Positions 2,546 to 29,342 of a stretch of DNA of 61,780 nucleotides are shown here, piece after piece; positions within the stretch are counted from its first letter, which is position 1, and each line of letters begins with the position of its first letter. The notes below the pieces were generated by a model. That model was not told the origin of the DNA and made no database searches. It worked only from the letters and a program-made list of their open reading frames with translations. The position numbers were made by a program, and so were the translations under genes. The DNA comes from Bacilli bacterium (GTDB taxonomy: Bacteria > Bacillota_I > Bacilli_A > RFN20 > CAG-826), in the NCBI GenBank assembly GCA_024680795.1, contig JAILBR010000043.1:1-61780 (forward strand), read 5' to 3'.

Positions 2546-4229
2546 ATCCTTTCTCGATCAATAATTCGAATTCTTTAGCGGGAACTGGTTTAGAAAAATA
2601 ATATCCTTGGATAATATTGTAGCCCATACTTTGTAAGGCCACGACTTGTTCTCTAGTCTCCACACCTTCAGCGACAAGATTGACCTTTAAATATTTAGCG
2701 ATGTCGGCAACAATTCCTACCATCTTAAATGTCTTATCATTTTTAAACATTTCTTTGACGAACTTCATATCGAGTTTTAATACGTCAAATGGCAAAATTG
2801 AAATCGTATTCAATGATGAATACCCACTACCGAAGTCATCAATCTCAACAGTGAAGCCTTCTTCTTTAAATTTCTCAACAATCGCCACAGCTTGATCGAT
2901 TTCATTGTTATAAGCGGATTCAGTGATTTCTAAATATAAATCTTTTACACTGATACCGACTTCATCAATGATTTCACGAATGTGATTGACTAAGTTCTTA
3001 TCAAACATATCAATACGAGAGATGTTAACGGAAATAGGTATGGTATAACCATATTTCTCCTTCCATTTTTTCACCTGCATCGCGGCTTCTTTCCAAACGA
3101 ATCTATCCACTAAACGAATCGCCCCATTTTCTTCGAAAATAGGAATGAAAACGCCAGGGGAAATAAACCCTAATTCTGGATGGATCCATCTGATTAAAGC
3201 TTCCGCGCTAGAAAGAACGAATTTATTACCGGAGATATTGACCTTTGGTTGGTAATAAACTTGGAATTGTTTTTCTTCGATAGCTCGTTTAACTTCTCTA
3301 ACTAATCTCTCTTTGAATAATTGTTTCTTTTGGGCTTCTTGGTCAAAGATGTGATATTTTTCTTTGTTACTATTTCTAACTTCATCGCAAACTTGTTTAG
3401 CTAAATCGATTCGTTTATCAACAGATTCTTCTTTGCTATCAACTTGATAGATACCTAAATGGAATCTTAAATTGTTGACGTTATATTTCTCGATTAATTC
3501 TTTATCAATTTCACTCATCAATTCGCTGTAATTAGAGATACGATTCGTATATAAAACAAAGTATTCAGATCTTAATCGACCGACGATACCATTATGTTTT
3601 CTCACGATTTCTTTTAAGATATCCGCTAAAGAACGTAAAGCATAATCCCCAGCATCTCGACCATATAATTCGTTATATAGATTTAATTTATCTACACCGA
3701 CAACAACGACATCAGTCTCATCATCTGGGTGATATAAGTCAATCTTAGAAGCATATTCAATAAAGACATGCTTATTATATGTATCAGTTAATTCATCTCT
3801 TTCTGCTGCTTGAATAATCATTCTATCTTCACTTAATTCAATAGAACGACGAACACGGGCAATAACTACTTCTGGTAAATCATATGGTTTAGTAATAAAG
3901 TCTGCTGCACCTAATTCAAGCGCATCTAATTCACTTTGTTTTTCACTAGTTAAAACAATAACTGGAATTCTTTTATATTTTTCATCAGCTTTAATAATCT
4001 TCAAGAATTCTAAACCGCCCATCACCGGCATATTGATATCTAAAAGAATTAATGAAATAGGGGTTAATGCGGTTTTAACAACATCTAAAGCTTCTTTACC
4101 ATTTTCTGCGGTTAACAATTCATAACTATCAGATAAGATTTCAGATAAGATTTCTGTATTAATAAATTCATCTTCAACGATTAAAATCGTTCTTCTGATT
4201 TGTCTAATGATGTTGTTGTTTTTGCTCAT
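2535..4229 (-). CDS. REC-GGDEF(degenerate)-EAL response regulator, probable c-di-GMP phosphodiesterase
   Basis: REC (ILIVEDE, LLDINMP), degenerate GGDEF (GRLRSEYF), intact EAL motifs (AEALIRW, DDFGSGYSSL, KLD, AEGVET, QGYYFSKP). Confidence 0.93.
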   Translation of the reverse strand: MSKNNNIIRQIRRTILIVEDEFINTEILSEILSDSYELLTAENGKEALDVVKTALTPISLILLDINMPVMGGLEFLKIIKADEKYKRIPVIVLTSEKQSELDALELGAADFITKPYDLPEVVIARVRRSIELSEDRMIIQAAERDELTDTYNKHVFIEYASKIDLYHPDDETDVVVVGVDKLNLYNELYGRDAGDYALRSLADILKEIVRKHNGIVGRLRSEYFVLYTNRISNYSELMSEIDKELIEKYNVNNLRFHLGIYQVDSKEESVDKRIDLAKQVCDEVRNSNKEKYHIFDQEAQKKQLFKERLVREVKRAIEEKQFQVYYQPKVNISGNKFVLSSAEALIRWIHPELGFISPGVFIPIFEENGAIRLVDRFVWKEAAMQVKKWKEKYGYTIPISVNISRIDMFDKNLVNHIREIIDEVGISVKDLYLEITESAYNNEIDQAVAIVEKFKEEGFTVEIDDFGSGYSSLNTISILPFDVLKLDMKFVKEMFKNDKTFKMVGIVADIAKYLKVNLVAEGVETREQVVALQSMGYNIIQGYYFSKPVPAKEFELLIEKGFGK

Positions 4230-16837: not shown

Positions 16838-18541
16838 TTATACGTTTTGTAGATTACTATAGTAGTCTTCTAGTTTCTTTCTTGAGGCAACATAGAACTT
16901 TTTTAAACTTGGATCGAAGTGTTTTCCCATGCCTTCCATAATTATCTTATTAGCCTCTTCAAACGACATGCTTTCTTTATAGACACGTTTACTGACAAGC
17001 GCATCATAAACATCTGCGATGGCCATAATACGCGCTTCAAAAGGAATGCTTTCGCCTTTAAGTTTATTTGGATATCCACTACCATCCCATCTTTCATGAT
17101 GATAATGAGCTACATTGACTGCGATATTCATAAAATCAATATCATCAGTGCCTTCTAGAATTTGTTTAACGATCCTTGCTCCTTCGGAAGCATGTGTTTT
17201 CATTATCTCAAATTCCTCTGGGGTAAACTTTCCTGGTTTTCTTAATATTGCATCATCAACTGCAATCTTCCCTAAATCATGCATAGGAGCGGCTTTAATT
17301 AGATTATTACAGAAGGTATCAGAAAGATTTAATGTGTTATCTTTCTTAATCTCACCCACTATGATTCTTATGCAATCACTAGTTCTTTTAATATGGCCGC
17401 CTGTAGAGTTATCTCTACCTTCAACCATAGTAGCCATACCAACAACCAGCTTTTCTTGCATTTCAATAACGCTTTTAGTTTTCTTATTAACTTCTTCTTC
17501 AAGTTGATTATTATACTGCTTGATAAGTTTGATATATTGCTGGTTTGCGGTATCATCCGTCATTAAAAATTGATATCCGCGGTGCATGCTTCCAACTGAC
17601 AATCTGTTAATATAGACGAGATATGTTTTGTTTTCGCGTTCAAATAGCCTTGTATTTTTAGTTTCATCGTTTTCAAATTCTGCTACCCAAGGGAGCAAAT
17701 TCTCTTTTAACCATTGGCTGTTATCAACGCGATGATCCACTACTAGAACGTTGAGCTCTGGTAACATCTCTTTTGCGGTTTCGTTGCTTCCTAGATATCT
17801 CATCTTATTATCAAAGGAAATAAACCCTGTTTCACCTTTTTGCACTAATGAATCAATAACGGAGTCAGAAGCATCATATAATCTTAATCGAGAAGCAATG
17901 ACCATATAAATTATCATGCCCATGTTATACGTGGCTGGTAATAGTTCCATCTCTTTAGTAATGAGTCTGCTGCCAAAGAAACCGATAACGGAAGTAGATA
18001 TAGCTATAACAATTAAGATCAAAATGGTCTTAGACACTTGTTTCTTTTTAAAGAAAGAATAAATGATAACTCCTATTGTAACAGCATAGAATAGGCCAAT
18101 CATGACGTAAAACACAGTGTGCATTGGTCCATAGTGTTTATCAGTGATATAGGCCGCTTCACCATAATAAGCAATAGAGGGCATACCTTGGTAGAAGATA
18201 TCAGTTTGCCCAATAGTAGTTGCACAAACATAAACACCAGTGGAAATAGCAATAATTAGAGTACGTATCCACGGTTTTAGAGGAATACCACAGGTATTAA
18301 ATATCAAAAACATGGCAGCTACTAAAACATAACAACCACCAATATAAGTGAATTTCAAAGCATTTAGTGCTCCTTCAACAGTAGTAGAATTTCCCATTAA
18401 AACGAACGCTAAGTTAATAACAGGGACTAGCACTGTCATGATGGTCAAGTTAGCGTCAAAATGCTTATGAAAAATAAACGCGTATATAATGACTAACGCT
18501 AGTGATAATCCAAGCATCGAATAATAAAACACCATTACCAT
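16838..18541 (-). CDS. Membrane HD-GYP phosphodiesterase with N-terminal 7TM (HisKA_7TM-like) sensor
   Basis: ~7 hydrophobic segments; TGGHIKR, MHDLGK, HHERWDGSGYP, IADVYDAL. Confidence 0.9.
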   Translation of the reverse strand: MVMVFYYSMLGLSLALVIIYAFIFHKHFDANLTIMTVLVPVINLAFVLMGNSTTVEGALNALKFTYIGGCYVLVAAMFLIFNTCGIPLKPWIRTLIIAISTGVYVCATTIGQTDIFYQGMPSIAYYGEAAYITDKHYGPMHTVFYVMIGLFYAVTIGVIIYSFFKKKQVSKTILILIVIAISTSVIGFFGSRLITKEMELLPATYNMGMIIYMVIASRLRLYDASDSVIDSLVQKGETGFISFDNKMRYLGSNETAKEMLPELNVLVVDHRVDNSQWLKENLLPWVAEFENDETKNTRLFERENKTYLVYINRLSVGSMHRGYQFLMTDDTANQQYIKLIKQYNNQLEEEVNKKTKSVIEMQEKLVVGMATMVEGRDNSTGGHIKRTSDCIRIIVGEIKKDNTLNLSDTFCNNLIKAAPMHDLGKIAVDDAILRKPGKFTPEEFEIMKTHASEGARIVKQILEGTDDIDFMNIAVNVAHYHHERWDGSGYPNKLKGESIPFEARIMAIADVYDALVSKRVYKESMSFEEANKIIMEGMGKHFDPSLKKFYVASRKKLEDYYSNLQNV

Positions 18542-18620
18542 ATGATAGATTTTATCACTTTATATATAAAGAGATAATATGAACATATAATTTATTACAT
18601 ACAATCAGAAAAAAGTGCGA

Positions 18621-18652
18621 AAAAAAAAGTGGCTTTTCTAACCGATTGCCAC
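18621..18652 (-). terminator. Terminator-like 3' end of the large ncRNA
   Basis: Minus strand GTGGC...GCCAC followed by TTTTTTTT. Confidence 0.55.
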
Positions 18653-19690
18653 AAACCGTCCCGCTGAAGCAGGGGCGAGCCCTGCGACAGTTTCAAGTTA
18701 AGTTCCATTAGGCTGGTGGTGCTTCTTGTCGTCGACTTGTTTTGAACTGATTAGCAAGTCGGTGGCCAGCTTCCTCTAGTTATTAGCTTTGAGGCTGTTT
18801 CCCTTTTTGTCATGACCGGTACTGGATTTACTCCGTCAAACTTTAACGCGGATGCCAGTGAGTGCAAGCACTCAGGGAGGGACGTACCGATGATTGAGGC
18901 TTTCGCTTCAACCCTTTGCTAGTGCAACCATTTAACTGCGGCTCTTTAATCCTCAGAAGTCCACCATCAATTTCATGGACTTGGTTGGCTTACCTAGTCT
19001 TAAGCTCATTAGACCTTTTCTTCGCGATAGATACCAGGAGTTTGCAGCTCTATCGCTATCTCCACACATTAGGTTGAGGAATGTGGATTAGGCTTGCCTT
19101 CTCCTATTGGAAGTTGGCTATTTCTACCTCTTCGATCATGTCCGGCGGTGGTATTACGCTGTTAAGCTATAACTCAGCGACCACTGTAACAGGGAGGCTT
19201 GCCGTTTAGCCACAACTGAATTGTGGACAGGTCCCTTGCGATCATTGACCAGAGGATTTAACTCTGGAGGCCTTACTATCAACGTCGTGTAATGGCTGAT
19301 CGTCTCTTTTAAGGGGCCAAACTCTTTAATGCCTATCTTCGTGGAGTGTTTGGCTTCACTTATTTCGCGCTTTGAGTTGACTTTAACGCGACTTGGCTCT
19401 TCACTAGGTTATTGGCCTCGTGAATTCGTTTTTCAATTCTCCTCTTCGTTCGTGTCGGGCGGTGGTATTACGCTGTTAAGTTCTAACTCAGCAACCACTC
19501 TAGGAGGGAGGAGGGACCCTTGGAAGGCTCCGAGGAGCCGACCTGCCAGTGCAACCTTTAATCCAAGACTTTTTAACCTTGGAACCACTGTGTCAACTTC
19601 GTTAACGCGTAGGTTGTCTTACCTGGTCTTGAGATACAAATAACTATCGTTATTTTTATCTCATCCACTCGGTTTCCCGTGTGGATTAGT
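18625..19690 (-). ncRNA. Large ORF-less ornate ncRNA candidate (~1.06 kb; ROOL/GOLLD-class by size and style, family unassigned)
   Basis: GC roughly 45-50% by eye versus very AT-rich flanks; dense hairpins; internal 59-nt repeat at 53/59 identity; sigma-A promoter and terminator on the minus strand; no credible ORF; no group I/II intron, RNase P, tmRNA or rRNA signatures recognised. Confidence 0.75.
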
Positions 19691-19692
19691 AT

Positions 19693-19721
19693 AGTATGCG
19701 CTTTTTTATTTTTTTCGTCAA
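19693..19721 (-). promoter_or_regulatory. Sigma-A promoter of the large ncRNA
   Basis: TTGACG (19721-19716) - 17 nt - CATACT (19698-19693), with A-rich UP-like region upstream. Confidence 0.6.
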
Positions 19722-19898
19722 TACATTTTTTTAATTTTTTTTACTTTTTTTCAAAATAATAAAGTATATCTCTTTAGAGATATAAAAATTTTAATTTTTT
19801 TAAAAAATATTTTTGTACTTATTTTACTACTATTAATATACGCGCATGCGTATAAATATTTATTTAATATATAGATATATAAAAGAAAAAAGGCTTTT

Positions 19899-21887
19899 TT
19901 ATAATTCAGCCTTCATTTCCATAATAATATCTCTTAATTCGATAGCTCTTTCGAAGTCAAATTCTTTGGCGGCTTGTCGCATTTGTTTCTCTAATTCCTT
20001 AATTCGAGCCTCGATTTCTTTTCTAGAACCATGCTTTGTGATCTTAACCATATCCGCAATTTCATCGTCTGAATTATGGATTGGCGGCCTAATCTCTTTA
20101 ATGATGGTTTGAGGAACAATGCCATTTTCGAAGTTATATTGTTCTTGAATATGCCTTCTTCTATTGGTTTCATCAATTGCGTTACGCATTGAATCGGTAA
20201 CTGTATCTGCGTACATTATTACTAAACCGTTCGCGTTTCTAGCTGCTCTACCGATGACTTGAATTAAACTTCTAGTGCTTCTTAAGAATCCTTCTTTATC
20301 TGCATCTAAAATAGATATTAAAGATACTTCAGGGATGTCTAATCCTTCTCTTAATAAGTTGATACCCACTAAAACATCATATTTACCTTTTCTTAGTTGA
20401 TAAATAATCTCACTTCTTTCCAAAGTTTTGGTCTCATGATGAAGATATATAACCTTAATACCTCTTTGTTTTAAGTATTCTGTAAGGTCTTCCGCCATTT
20501 TGATGGTCAAAGTTACAAGCATAACGCGTTCGTTTTTCTCCACTCTTTTCTTAATCTCAAAAAGAATGTCATCAATTTGACCCATTGTAGGTCTAATTTC
20601 CACTTTAGGATCAAGTAGACCTGTAGGTCTAATAATCTGTTCAGCGATAGGGGCATCGGTTTTATTTAACTCATAATCCCCTGGAGTAGCAGATGTACAA
20701 ATGACTTGTGGCATCAATTCTTCAAACTCATTAAAGTTAAGTGGTCTATTATCTAAAGCACTTGGAAGTCTAAAGCCGTATTCCACAAGTGTTTCTTTTC
20801 TACTTCTATCACCAGCGTACATACCTCTAATCTGTGGGAATGATACGTGCGACTCATCAACAAATAGTAAAAAGTCTTTAGGAAAATAATCGATTAAGCA
20901 AAATGGTCTTTGTCCTGGCTCTCTTTTATCGATATGTCTTGAATAATTCTCAATGCCAGGGCACATTCCAAATTCTTGCATGTTTTCAATATCTTGATTT
21001 GTTCTCATTTCAAGACGTTCGGCTTCAAGAAGTTTTCCTTCTTTTCTAAAGTATTCCAATCTTTCTTCTAACTCAGCACGTATTGTTTCACACGCTTCTT
21101 TGATTCTTTGTCTTGTGGAAGCATGGTCATAGGCTGGAAAAATAGGATACGTATGATATGAGTGTTTAATTTCACCTGTCAAAAGATCAACTTCATATAT
21201 CTTTTCTATCTCATCACCAAAAGTATCAATTCTAATAACTGTATTATCTTCAGCATTAGCAGGAACTATCTCAATGATATCTCCTCTTACTCTAAAGCTT
21301 CCTGGCGGGGTATCGAGATTATTTCTCTTATATTGAGCATCCACTAACGACTTATAGAATTCTTTTCTATCTATTTCTTCTCCAACACGGATTTCAAAAA
21401 CGAGATCACGGTATTCATCTGGATCAATTAAGCCATAGATAGAAGCAACAGAAGCAACGATAATCGTATCTCTTCTTTCAATGACAGAATTAATAGCGGA
21501 TGTTCTGAGCATTTCAATCTCATCGTTCATTACCGCGTTCTTATCAATATATGTGTCGCTTTTTGGAATGTAAGCTTCTGGTTGATAAAAATCGAAGTTA
21601 CTGACAAAATACTCAACACGATTATTTGGAAATAATTCTTTAAACTCAGAATAAAGCTGGCCTGCAAGTGTTTTGTTATGAACCATGATTAAAGCAGGAC
21701 GTTGAACACGCTCGATAATGTTGGCCATAGTAAAGGTTTTTCCAGTACCTGTTGCACCTAATAGCACTTGGAACTTTTTACTAGATTCTATACCCTTTAC
21801 AAGTTGGTCAATTGCGGTGGGTTGATCACCAGTTGGTTTGAATTTAGAAACTAACTCAAATTTATGTGAATTATCGATATTTTTCAT
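19899..21887 (-). CDS. uvrB: Excinuclease ABC subunit B
   Basis: [51 protein letters not shown]-terminal UVR motif. Confidence 0.98.
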
Positions 21888-26473: not shown

Positions 26474-27118
26474 CTATTTATTTTTATGTAAAACATTCTT
26501 TGCTATAACTAATACCTCTATTTTCTTTGGTTTTCCTGTCATAACTAAGTTAATAGCAGCGTTCATACTAGAACCAGTTGTATAGACATCATCAACTATT
26601 AAAATTTTCTTGTTATTTACAGCGTCTAGATCAGTAATTGTGAAGTTTTTTTGAGATGATATTCTTTGCTTTCTGGTCTGTTTAGCCTGCTTATGATTTT
26701 CTACTTTTTTCAGGATGTTCAGCACAGGAAGATTTAACCCACTATAAATCTCAACAACATGATTGAATCCTCTCTTCTTATCATCTAATTCAAATGAGGG
26801 AACCGGAACTATGTAATATCCTCTATATTTGATTCTTAAAAACCATAAGTATCTCGCTAAAAACACATCCTTAAGTTCAATGTCATAACATCCCTTAAAC
26901 TTAAATAATAGCTCTTTTATCGTTTGATCATACTCATATATCGCCATGCCTTTGATGTCTCTAACATGAAAATGTATAAATCGTGGATTAAACTTAGAAA
27001 AGCACTCTTCACATAATACATTCTCTCCGTCAATTAAGTTATGAAATGAGTTATCTTTAATCTCTTGGAAGCATATCTTGCAATGCTTTATTGGACTTGA
27101 TAATACTAGCACGTGCAT
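26474..27118 (-). CDS. comFC: ComF family (ComFC) phosphoribosyltransferase-like competence protein
   Basis: CKIC...CEEC zinc finger, RGFNHV, ILIVDDVYTTGSS. Confidence 0.9.
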   Translation of the reverse strand: MHVLVLSSPIKHCKICFQEIKDNSFHNLIDGENVLCEECFSKFNPRFIHFHVRDIKGMAIYEYDQTIKELLFKFKGCYDIELKDVFLARYLWFLRIKYRGYYIVPVPSFELDDKKRGFNHVVEIYSGLNLPVLNILKKVENHKQAKQTRKQRISSQKNFTITDLDAVNNKKILIVDDVYTTGSSMNAAINLVMTGKPKKIEVLVIAKNVLHKNK

Positions 27119-28220
27119 CCTCCATTTCTTTGGTTATTTTTTTAGCAATAAAGACCACATCACCGTGTGGATCATCTATCTTTCTTCCTGCTCTTCCAGC
27201 TATCTGAACGAGTGTACCTTTATCGTATATTTTGTTGTCTGAATTAAAGACAATGACATCAGACTCTTTTATGGTTACTCCTCGCTCTAAAACCGAAGTT
27301 GTTACTAAAAATTTCCATGTTTTGCACCTAAATTCATGAATTACGCTATTTCTTCCATCTCTTTTCGAATGAACGTAATTGCCATGTTTAAATAGCATTG
27401 ATAGAATTTTATATAGCGATTCACATTCGCTAATTGTTGGAGTAAAAACAAAAGCTTGTCTATTTCTTCTTAATATATTTTTAAGCGTAATATATAGATG
27501 ATAGTATCTTGATATCAAATGGCCTATTTTAAAAATCGGGACCGGTAATGGATGTCCATGAAATCTTGTGTTTAGTGACAAGATATCTTTTCCAGCTTGT
27601 TTAAATAAATTAATCACTTCCTCACTTGGTGTTGCAGACATTAAAATATAGTGCCCATTTAAAGAATTAAAGAAAATGTTTTTCAACACTTCATTATCTT
27701 TGAAAGGGAAAGCATCTATTTCATCTAGCACAATTAGGGCAAAATATTTTTTGTATCGATATAATTGGTGTGTGGTTAAAACAACAAGGTCTGCTTCTAC
27801 TTCATCATGGTGCCCACCATAGACAGATATTACAGTGTTTTTAATGAATATTTCTTTTAACCTATTTGTTAGTTCTATAACAACATCTCTTCTAGGTACT
27901 GCGAATGCCACTTTGTCGCCACAATTAATCGCGTATTTAATAACATTTAGCGATATTTCTGTTTTGCCAGATCCACACACGGCAAAAACTAAACTATCTA
28001 TGCCTTTCTTATAGTTCTCAACTAACTTATTCGATAATTCTTTTTGCTCTGGAGATAATTCATACTCGAGATGAATAGGCGCTTTTTTAGGGTATGAAGG
28101 TTTATGTTCTACTTCTTCGCCTCGAAAAGAGATACACCTACGACAATAGGGTTTACCGTTGAGATATCCTATAGAATGTATATCAGTATTACCACATATT
28201 GGGCATTTATAAGTTTCTAT
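27057..28220 (-). CDS. comFA: Competence DEAD/DEAH helicase ComFA
   Basis: CPICG...CRRC, AVCGSGKTE, DEIDAFP, MSATP, TTSVLERGVT, QIAGRAGR; start appears to be ATA at 28220 behind an AAGGAG RBS. Confidence 0.9.
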   Translation of the reverse strand: METYKCPICGNTDIHSIGYLNGKPYCRRCISFRGEEVEHKPSYPKKAPIHLEYELSPEQKELSNKLVENYKKGIDSLVFAVCGSGKTEISLNVIKYAINCGDKVAFAVPRRDVVIELTNRLKEIFIKNTVISVYGGHHDEVEADLVVLTTHQLYRYKKYFALIVLDEIDAFPFKDNEVLKNIFFNSLNGHYILMSATPSEEVINLFKQAGKDILSLNTRFHGHPLPVPIFKIGHLISRYYHLYITLKNILRRNRQAFVFTPTISECESLYKILSMLFKHGNYVHSKRDGRNSVIHEFRCKTWKFLVTTSVLERGVTIKESDVIVFNSDNKIYDKGTLVQIAGRAGRKIDDPHGDVVFIAKKITKEMEDARASIIKSNKALQDMLPRD

Positions 28221-28296
28221 ATTGCAACATCTCCTTTCTTTTGATTTAATATTTGTAGTGAGCAAGCACATAGGGGCTGTAAAAGGCGCGTGTAGC

Positions 28297-28656
28297 TCAT
28301 TTTTTCTTTTGTATCTTTTTTACCTTTTTTCTGTCATCTTTATGCACTCTAAATTGTTCATAAGGATAAGGGTGTTTAAAATTCTCATACTTAACTATTT
28401 GTGGCTGCGTAATCACAAAGCTTTTTGCACCTGTGTTTTCTAATGCTGGATCAATTTGATGCAGTAATAATTCTCTATGCCTACCATCGGAATCAGTAAA
28501 ACGAACAATCCAATACTTATTTTTCTTAGTGTTCTTTTTGTATAACCTTGAATAATGCCCACCACTTGAATCCATTATTCTATAGAATTTGCCTTTAATA
28601 AGAGGCTTTTTAAATCTTCTTTCATATGTTGATTTACGCTTTTTCTTTTTACTCAT
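28297..28656 (-). CDS. Small basic protein, PemK/MazF-like fold suspected (paralog A)
   Basis: AAGGAGG RBS; 119 aa; homologous to 29019-29342 (FY...D..GGH...LYKK..KKN.Y..V.FT.S.G...L.H.I.P...SFV..P). Confidence 0.75.
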   Translation of the reverse strand: MSKKKKRKSTYERRFKKPLIKGKFYRIMDSSGGHYSRLYKKNTKKNKYWIVRFTDSDGRHRELLLHQIDPALENTGAKSFVITQPQIVKYENFKHPYPYEQFRVHKDDRKKVKKIQKKK

Positions 28657-28671
28657 ATTTCCTCCTTTATG

Positions 28672-28944
28672 TTATGGATTTGTTGTCTTCGGGGATCCGC
28701 ATACGGCAAAAACCAAGCTATCAATACATTTCTTATAGTTTTCAACAAGTTTATTTGATAGTTTTTTTTGCTCAGGAGAGAGTTCATATTCTAGGTGAAT
28801 AGGCGCTTTCTTGGGATAAGAAGGTTTGTGTTCAAATTCTTCACCTTTAAAAGAAATGCATTTTCGGCAATATTGTTTGCCATTCAGCATTCCGATTGAA
28901 TGGATATCTGTGTTACCACAAATAGGACATTTATAAGTTTCTAT
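28672..28944 (-). pseudogene. comFA: Truncated alternative 5' copy of comFA (84 aa homologous, breaks at Walker A)
   Basis: 77/84 aa identical to the full copy with many synonymous differences; AVCGS|PKTTNP* instead of AVCGS|GKTE. Confidence 0.9.
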
Positions 28945-29018
28945 ATTGCATTGCCTCCTTTATTTTGGTTTAATATATCTAGTGATTCGCAGGTGAGATC
29001 CATTGTTGGTCTGGTGAA

Positions 29019-29342
29019 TCATTTTTTTCTTTTTATAGACTCAATAAGTGGTTTATCTTCTTTGTTTATTTTTATGCCTTCTAATGGCCTACTGCCAAGA
29101 TCTCTTCTTTTGCTTTTCGAAGGCGTATTGTGAACAAACGACACTTTAACTTTAATTGGTTCTATGCTGTGCTTTAATTTAATTCTTTTAGGGCCTGGCG
29201 ATGATGTAAACACAATAACAAAATAACTGTTTTTCTTGTCACTCTTCTTATAAAGAAGAGCTGGATGTCCACCATGTCCATCACTATGTATATAAAATCT
29301 TCTTCTTTCTAAATGTTTGTTATAAATCTTTTTCTTGCTCAT
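29019..29342 (-). CDS. Small basic protein, PemK/MazF-like fold suspected (paralog B)
   Basis: AAGGAG RBS; 107 aa; GHPALLY...YFVIVFTSS...SFV pattern resembles the PemK/MazF RP.LV...VVPITS...S.I core. Confidence 0.75.
   Translation of the reverse strand: MSKKKIYNKHLERRRFYIHSDGHGGHPALLYKKSDKKNSYFVIVFTSSPGPKRIKLKHSIEPIKVKVSFVHNTPSKSKRRDLGSRPLEGIKINKEDKPLIESIKRKK

Follow-up and report, generated by a model that had tools for sequence, protein, structure and literature searches.

The question raised by this locus is what fills the 1.36 kb (18542-19898) between uvrB and a gene for a seven-transmembrane (7TM) HD_5/HD protein in contig JAILBR010000043.1 of the Bacilli bacterium assembly GCA_024680795.1. 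The contig was analysed over its full 61,780 nt, referred to here as the window. We consider it almost certain that the gap harbours a free-standing gene whose product, a non-coding RNA of ~1,065 nt with extensive structure, represents a class not described before and restricted to a single family of uncultured rumen Bacilli with small genomes. A previous inspection of the letters alone (the sequence-only reading) had proposed a stand-alone structured RNA of ~1.06 kb with its own promoter and terminator, in a gap without a credible open reading frame (ORF) and with GC content above that of its flanks, and these proposals are borne out by conserved ends and covariation. The longest ORF in the gap does not exceed 104 aa. 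No ORF is conserved among 30 orthologues, in which the longest ones span 42-104 aa and vary in strand and position. The GC content of 18600-19700 is 45-49%, compared with 15-39% in the flanks and ~33% in the genome.

The gene runs on the minus strand, as do all elements of the RNA described below, from the predicted start at 19686 to the end of a U-run at 18620. The start is an A placed 7 nt past the -10 hexamer of a promoter (19721-19693) composed of TTGACG (19721-19716), a 17-nt spacer and CATACT (19698-19693). This match, already pointed out in the sequence-only reading, is by itself at chance level (5 promoter-like sites scanned versus 4.3 expected), but its position and both hexamers, along with an upstream A-tract, are kept in 15 loci that were fetched and aligned from promoter to terminator (RNAs of 1045-1102 nt). 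Two paralogues in this genome, both on contig C53, have an almost identical promoter. The A/T-rich A-tract region (19760-19722) is located directly upstream of the -35 hexamer and may function in the manner of an UP element; the block TTTAAAAAAA(C/T)G(C/T), immediately before the hexamer, is kept in the 15 loci. At the other end, the intrinsic terminator (18652-18620) comprises the stem GUGGC (18652-18648)/GCCAC (18633-18629), a 14-nt loop and U9 (18628-18620). A simple terminator scan missed it because the loop exceeds 8 nt. The terminator is conserved in the 15-locus alignment, and covariation in its stem, with AU6/CG6/UA3 at one base pair and CG7/UA4/UG3/AU1 at a second, supports the terminal stem and U-run that had been noticed.

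An Rfam scan of the whole window returned exactly three matches, all of them full-length, on the minus strand and to cow-rumen-1 (RF02946), a model of 61 positions with a gathering score of 53.4 bits. They are located at 19501-19441 (78.6 bits), 19187-19127 (83.9 bits) and 18861-18802 (65.2 bits), spaced by 314 and 326 nt, one in each of the three modules presented below. All three modules thus belong to RF02946, although the family describes only a fragment of each. No match to ROOL, GOLLD, OLE, intron, RNase P or transfer-messenger RNA (tmRNA) was obtained in 18400-19900 at E<=10, and ROOL, GOLLD and OLE gave none at the gathering threshold in the whole window. Rfam models and ARAGORN also agree with the earlier impression that signatures of group I and II introns, RNase P, tmRNA and ribosomal RNA (rRNA) are missing, and ARAGORN detected neither tRNA nor tmRNA in the whole 61.8-kb window. 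Weak matches to MIR1886, tpke11 and PhotoRC-I (E<=10) were dismissed as chance-level. The idea of an expanded ROOL-like RNA is therefore not sustained, as the architecture is one of three linked homologous modules. A new class, which had been named as the other option, fits the evidence, with the correction that one part of it, the cow-rumen-1 hairpin of each module, was already catalogued; these matches and the threefold repeat of the modules had been overlooked.

We take cow-rumen-1 to originate from the supplement of Weinberg et al. 2017, NAR 45:10811. A literature search, in whose range that supplement was not included, found no paper mentioning cow-rumen-1 or RF02946. The main text of the survey (PMC5737381) contains no discussion of it. 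The family and the RNA studied here have in common the rumen origin and the full-length match in each module. The model, however, spans 61 nt of a ~315-nt module, amounting to ~17% of the whole RNA, and it was filed as a small RNA, with tandem layout, leader, trailer, promoter and terminator all outside the model. It also leaves its 3' tail unpaired and draws a 3-bp inner stem, while in our alignments covariation supports a long-range pseudoknot at that loop. The inner stem was rejected because it shows no covariation, and pseudoknots take its place.

The three regions around the Rfam matches align mutually over ~200 nt, and Tandem Repeats Finder missed them because they are too diverged. Their order is collinear rather than permuted, with units 1 and 3 more alike than either is to unit 2. 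The RNA is built of a leader (19686-19631), module 1 (19630-19319), module 2 (19318-19002), module 3 with the trailer (19001-18653) and the terminator. Each module begins with P1, formed by CUAG/CUAG and CAAUCA/UGAUUG, which closes a three-way junction with a stem carrying GUUGA in its loop and a hairpin with an AUUAAA loop. The junction is followed by a variable hairpin, CCUCCCU, the cow-rumen-1 hairpin (P5) and the tail CGCCGGACAYGAUCGAAGAGG. In every unit CCUC pairs with GAGG at the end of its own tail, enclosing P5 and an internal loop. The core of this helix is invariant, and its flanking pairs covary in units 1 and 3 (UA13/AU2, UA14/CG1, UA10/AU2). P1 and P5 covary both between species and between paralogous units, for example UA28/CG14 and GC26/UA11/AU4. 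The asymmetric internal loop is almost invariant, with CCUGNUAN on one side and CGCCGGACAYGAUCGAA on the other. About 25 unpaired nt per module are extremely conserved in all modules and species and in the single-module relatives described below. A kink-turn or hammerhead-like reading of the CCUC-CCU-GA segment was dropped, as GA is not conserved in modules 1 and 2.

The modules differ in details added to this common plan. Module 1 consists of a core (19630-19439), a linker and the 3' strand of pseudoknot 1. Its core contains the P1 three-way junction, the variable hairpin, the CCUC/GAGG helix (19513-19508/19444-19439) and the cow-rumen-1 hairpin, and both P1 helices (19626-19623/19549-19546 and 19616-19611/19557-19552) covary. 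In module 2, the core (19319-19125) is followed by a linker that forms two hairpins, one at 19087-19061 and the other at 19055-19025, and then by the 3' strand of pseudoknot 2. Module 3 (19001-18700) is comprised of a core (19001-18799) and the beginning of the trailer, as far as the 3' segment of pseudoknot 3; it carries an extra hairpin (18874-18859) and the helix 18882-18877/18805-18800.

Two unique segments border the modules. The 5' leader is formed by a GAAA-capped hairpin (19686-19663), the one with which the RNA had been said to open, and a hairpin with a GAUAG loop (19662-19631). In the first of them the GNRA loop is kept while the stem sequence changes between species. The 3' trailer domain (18798-18653) includes a hairpin with a UAAUAAC loop (18794-18773), the helix 18770-18766/18716-18712 enclosing the hairpin 18760-18734, a CAGGG/CCCUG hairpin and the very conserved block CAAGAAGCACCACCAGCC.

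Evidence for the fold was obtained at two sampling depths. In the 15-sequence alignment, RNAalifold gave 206 pairs, 97 of them with compensatory change. The proportion of paired cells was 95.5%, compared with 30-41% when the 3' partners were slid by 1-3 columns, and the 97 covarying pairs compare with 18-27 in the slid controls; none of 500 shuffles reached the observed values. The larger set of 30 orthologues (1045-1102 nt, at least nine genera, mean identity 68%) gave 97.1% of paired cells against 27-41% in controls, and 89 of 145 pairs covary against 21-31. All stems listed in the sequence-only reading are present, most of them with compensatory changes. Covarying stems include 19655-19649/19644-19638 (6 of 7 pairs), which is the second leader hairpin, 19267-19262/19254-19249 (6/6), 19228-19222/19215-19209 (7/7), 19055-19051/19029-19025 (5/5), 18874-18870/18863-18859 (4/5) and 18760-18755/18739-18734 (5/6). 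Some helices proposed by RNAalifold were not accepted: pairing of the 5' GAAAG with the terminator U-run was rejected as spurious, and helices at alignment (A1) columns 463-468/804-809 and 933-938/1110-1115 were rejected for lack of covariation. The rejected helices were dropped because they use bases of pseudoknots or of CCUC/GAGG helices with better covariation support.

When column pairs that covary in stacks were sought beyond the nested structure, three equivalent 6-bp pseudoknots emerged. They all link the apical loop of P5 to a segment ~155 nt downstream, which directly precedes P1 of the next module or, in the case of the last module, sits in the trailer. Pseudoknot 1 joins 19483-19478 (GAACUU) to 19324-19319 (GAGUUU), directly in front of module 2; pseudoknot 2 joins 19169-19164 (UAGCUU) to 19007-19002 (GAGCUU), directly in front of P1 of module 3; and pseudoknot 3 joins 18843-18838 (AAGUUU) to 18705-18700 (GAACUU), its 3' strand in the trailer. 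Only 1 to 7 of 180 cells per pseudoknot do not pair in the 30 sequences. Pseudoknot 1 has a single non-canonical cell and pair types such as CG19/UA9/UG2 and AU25/GC5, followed by GC23/AU7 and CG21/UA7 in pseudoknot 2 and UA25/CG4/UG1 in pseudoknot 3. Compensatory changes yield combinations such as GAACUU/AAGUUC, GAAUUU/AAAUUC, GAGUUU/AAACUC and GAGCUU/GAGCUU. In the 15-sequence alignment, 98.5% of the pseudoknot cells are paired versus at most 64% when slid, with 5 covarying pairs versus 0-1. Since the P5 loop pairs with bases just before the next P1, each module is self-closing and docked to its successor. This placement defines the functional repeat as a ~315-nt module which ends exactly where the next one begins.

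Copies of the RNA are not limited to this locus. In the window's genome, a 74%-complete assembly of 1.33 Mb, 11 cow-rumen-1 matches were found, three of them here and eight on contig C53. The latter constitute two more loci, one with five modules (L011:9050-10752) and one with three (L011:12063-13157), both with near-identical promoter, first hairpin and terminator. In relatives (n=61), cow-rumen-1 matches occur mostly in threes. Full-length copies from additional genera, as well as from 47 metagenome contigs, were detected with a profile of the 15-locus alignment, and more than 60 full-length homologues can by now be retrieved. The five-module RNAs (~1.7 kb) follow profile positions 5-711 and then 90-1067, corresponding to leader-(U1-U2)2-U3-trailer, and are present in the window's genome, in two other genera and in metagenome contigs. 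By inspection, all five pseudoknots pair in the five-module paralogue of the window's genome, each with a sequence of its own. Only odd module numbers were seen; U1-type and U2-type units alternate, according to the grammar leader-(U1-U2)n-U3-trailer. Whole-gene duplications are frequent, often in tandem or one small gene apart (L105, L135, L136, L145, L048 and L053). As a separate observation, genome G019 contains a decayed one-module remnant (L050:3998-4314, minus strand) directly upstream of an intact three-module gene, in which the first half of unit 1 is fused to the second half of unit 3 and the trailer, and the CCUCCC motif is lost.

The distribution of the RNA is narrow. In the window's bacterial family, the motif was detected in 43 of 251 sampled genomes and in 11 of 48 genera, with matches in threes, multiples of three and fives. 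A sample of 301 genomes of the order gave 14 positives, all from this same family and none from the others. A pattern derived from the trailer, searched over the genomes of 185,579 species, matched 23 contigs, all of them from rumen metagenome-assembled genomes labelled as uncultured Bacilli, Bacillales or Erysipelotrichaceae; the hosts are cattle, goat, water deer and reindeer. It also matched 47 metagenome contigs and no viral contig. This result, and the lack of tRNA in the window, agree with the earlier description of the gene as chromosomal and outside any phage or tRNA context. A class-level search with a pattern for the single-module core matched 0 of 401 genomes, the pattern being too strict.

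We have also addressed the weak single cow-rumen-1 matches found elsewhere. They belong to a distinct RNA of ~350-400 nt, which has one module and a terminator of its own (L055:~2890-3330 on the minus strand, L056, L057, L058, L097, L098 and L099). It shares with the kilobase RNA the P1-closed three-way junction, the GUUGA loop, the UUAAA-loop hairpin, CCUC(N)CUGA, a cow-rumen-1-like hairpin (40-58 bits), the CCAGACAUG..CGAA tail and a UAAUGAC-loop hairpin such as the one in the trailer. The pseudoknot is shared as well, with compensatory change (GGACUU/GAGUCC versus GAGCUU/GAGCUC). Unlike the kilobase RNA, which has no fixed neighbours, the single-module RNA resides in a recurring cassette, where it is flanked on one side by a convergent gene for a very basic protein of ~100 aa, located at 2568-2870 in L055, and on the other by a 5' fragment of comFA. 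The single-module RNA may represent the ancestral, monomeric state, and the basic protein can be considered a candidate partner. The window itself contains a copy of the comFA cassette (27057-29342, minus strand), with comFA at 27057-28271, two very basic small ORFs in front of it (28297-28656 and 29019-29342) and a truncated second comFA start at 28672-28890. The two small proteins are 23-40% identical to the protein next to the single-module RNA in other genomes and have no Pfam or PADLOC family. No single-module RNA was found in this copy of the cassette.

Contig ends in metagenomes provide indirect evidence on the transcript. Fifteen of the 47 metagenome contigs, derived from ten Joint Genome Institute (JGI) sample ids, lack any flanking DNA. 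The JGI records concerned are Ga0255060-62, Ga0256869/70/72, Ga0352976, Ga0138317 and Ga0326508/9. They begin 0-25 nt after the predicted start, one of them exactly at the equivalent of 19686, and end inside the terminator hairpin, the three-module forms being 1004-1052 nt and the five-module forms 1681-1693 nt long. In the remaining samples, the contigs extend for kilobases into flanking DNA. Such a split by sample is the pattern expected of metatranscriptome assemblies, which supports a full-length transcript and suggests that the flank-free contigs are assemblies of it, with the predicted ends. Two otherwise flank-free contigs, L120 (Ga0255061) and L144 (Ga0255060), reach 65-67 nt upstream and include the promoter. 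This extension could be due to a second upstream start, to read-through or to DNA in the samples. A second promoter-like site, TTGAAA-18-AAAAAT, is located at 19754-19725 of the window.

The genes around the RNA follow no pattern. In the window it is preceded by uvrB (19899-21887, minus strand), identified by Pfam UvrB domains, and followed by the 7TM HD_5/HD protein gene (16838-18541, minus strand). Flanking genes are of the housekeeping kind and differ at every locus examined, as illustrated by uvrB with HD, HAD with Mbeg1-like, MscS, AraC, nitroreductase, and amylase with ZIP. The differing neighbours indicate that there is no cis target and no fixed partner gene. Upstream of the A-tract, ~45 nt from the -35 hexamer, an inverted repeat forms the palindromic hairpin TATATCTCTAAAGAGATATA, followed by a T-rich run (19784-19765, minus strand). 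At most loci, including L040, L045, L047, L048, L049 and L051, a palindrome of different sequence is found at the matching place, 40-60 nt upstream of the -35 hexamer, its symmetry kept and T-rich sequence following. A hairpin fits this combination of changing sequence and kept symmetry better than does a fixed protein-binding site, and the palindrome probably serves as an insulating terminator that shields the RNA promoter from uvrB read-through.

In addition, some observations were made in the surroundings of the gene. In the relative L043, a cyclic di-GMP (c-di-GMP)-I riboswitch is present at 2585-2659 (minus strand), ~220 nt downstream of the RNA terminator, and in the window the downstream 7TM HD_5/HD protein is possibly an HD-GYP c-di-GMP phosphodiesterase. 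This co-location may be a coincidence or a remnant of shared synteny. In genome G001, a GC-rich segment (45-52%) at L040:2450-2600 (plus strand), ending in a hairpin and T-run, precedes the RNA promoter by ~220 nt; Rfam gave no match to it at the gathering threshold.

Among known systems, GOLLD RNAs are ~800 nt long, and both ROOL and GOLLD are often associated with tRNA genes or with phages and prophages. The kilobase RNA resembles ROOL, GOLLD and OLE in being large, GC-rich relative to its host, free of ORFs, rich in structure and in conserved unpaired nucleotides, and without a known function; ROOL, too, came to light in rumen data. It matches none of the three in sequence or structure, however, and with 1045-1102 nt, or ~1.7 kb in the five-module form, it is longer than any of them (ROOL ~580 nt, PMC5737381; OLE ~600 nt, PMC9723947). 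While each of these RNAs adopts one unique fold, the kilobase RNA is made of covalently repeated homologous domains and is confined to one bacterial family and, in contrast to ROOL and GOLLD, it lacks tRNA and phage context. Another kind of comparison is offered by CsrB/RsmZ sponges and the repeats of the type III antitoxin ToxI, multivalent RNAs that bind one protein many times. Common features are tandem structured units in a stand-alone transcript and a repeat number that varies between paralogues. In those systems the units are hairpins or repeats of ~20-36 nt, whereas here they are ~315 nt long and pseudoknotted, and for the kilobase RNA no CsrA-type GGA loop pattern, adjacent toxin gene or partner is known. 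Assignment as a ToxI-like type III antitoxin was rejected on the size of the units (~315 nt, not ~34-36), the downstream 7TM-HD protein and the variable neighbours.

With respect to function, we tentatively favour a mechanism in which the RNA would be strongly transcribed from its insulated, UP-element-type promoter and would act as a multivalent scaffold or sponge, although we would put this mechanism at little above one chance in three. Its invariant internal loops would serve as identical binding surfaces, three in this RNA and five in the 1.7-kb variants, all occupied by one partner, most likely a protein. This mechanism is favoured because the most conserved feature is an unpaired internal loop present once per module, and because the number of modules varies between three and five while each stays intact; variable number and invariant loop together argue that each module is a semi-independent binding unit. 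Several points weigh against it. No gene is consistently adjacent, and no partner protein was found among 20 flanking proteins. The candidate basic protein occurs in 20 of 43 RNA-bearing genomes and in 18 of 208 without the RNA, a difference confounded by phylogeny. Transcript support for this organism is indirect, the flank-free contigs being presumed metatranscriptome products, and where a conserved multi-copy element ends, breaks in the assembly could partly mimic such contigs. Finally, the strict leader-(U1-U2)n-U3-trailer grammar and the docking of modules could equally mean one integrated, RNA-only architecture. Taken together, the identity of the RNA and the scaffold mechanism form the best explanation of the locus, which we regard as falling somewhat short of an even chance.

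The RNA-only architecture is the most serious of the competing explanations, if an unlikely one. It supposes that the modules pack through pseudoknot/P1 junctions into one pseudo-symmetric particle, for example a cage or platform, whose function lies in its shape, as a single-chain counterpart of ROOL, GOLLD and OLE homo-oligomers. Such packing agrees with the pseudoknot 3' strand abutting the next P1, which makes coaxial stacking from module to module possible, with the pairing partner that the trailer provides for the last module and with the restriction to odd numbers of alternating U1-type and U2-type modules. Tertiary contacts could involve the conserved AUUAAA and GUUGA loops as well as GNRA tetraloops, and RNA-only multimers of ROOL, GOLLD and OLE offer a precedent (PMC12286853). 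On the other hand, the covariation scan revealed no tertiary contact between modules beyond the pseudoknots, and a closed symmetric object made of three modules cannot be the same as one made of five. Compared with this, it is improbable that the transcript is a polycistronic precursor cleaved to release three ~315-nt RNAs with separate actions. Each module folds autonomously, as illustrated by single-module RNAs with the same fold, pseudoknot and their own terminator (L055, L057, L058, L097-L099), but the 1.0-kb and 1.7-kb forms are both covered in their entirety by flank-free contigs, the unique leader and trailer are conserved, and neither Rfam nor ARAGORN indicated RNase P, a tRNA-like or another processing signal. 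Cutting between modules would also need great precision, with pseudoknot strands abutting the next module.

Even less probable is a catalytic RNA with the invariant internal loop as its active site, engaged in self-processing or acting in trans. It could account for the ~25 extremely conserved unpaired nt per module, and when large bacterial RNAs are put forward as candidate ribozymes, the usual grounds are their size combined with conserved unpaired bases (PMC5737381). However, no similarity to an Rfam ribozyme family was found at E<=10, triplication of an active site has no obvious rationale, and neither a conserved substrate gene nor an adjacent target is present. The remaining explanation, that the locus is not an RNA gene at all, we regard as very improbable. 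The locus would then be a cis-regulatory leader of the HD gene, a decayed mobile element, or a repeat at the DNA level, either a satellite or an array of protein-binding sites. In favour of this one could cite the tandem repeats, the c-di-GMP-I riboswitch downstream in L043 and the putative HD-GYP-type gene downstream in the window. The element nevertheless ends in a conserved intrinsic terminator, and the downstream genes differ in strand and identity at every locus; a cis-regulatory leader or riboswitch was rejected on both counts. Hundreds of compensatory changes, including those in long-range pseudoknots, are specific to the fold of one strand, and no transposase, inverted ends or viral context was found.

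A more specific proposal is possible though rather doubtful. According to it, the kilobase RNA would be a natural single-chain concatemer of a self-closing ~315-nt pseudoknotted domain whose monomer survives in the comFA-proximal cassette. The concatemer would either build in cis a multi-protomer architecture like the one that ROOL, GOLLD and OLE form in trans or titrate several copies of a small basic protein encoded beside the monomer. If true, it would be the longest class of bacterial non-coding RNA besides rRNA and introns, following a design principle not described before.

To our knowledge, few large structured bacterial RNAs of unknown function have been recognized. Each one studied has given unexpected biology, such as RNA-only cages and membrane ribonucleoprotein complexes. 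The RNA presented here exceeds all of them in size and follows a different design principle, in which a single chain contains three or five serially docked copies of a complex, pseudoknotted domain, and a short motif filed in Rfam as 'sRNA' turns out to be its fragment. With monomer, trimer and pentamer forms available for comparison, it offers a natural system for the duplication, divergence and assembly of RNA domains. For the poorly known, uncultured rumen lineage that carries it, the kilobase RNA is a strongly conserved and probably abundant molecule.

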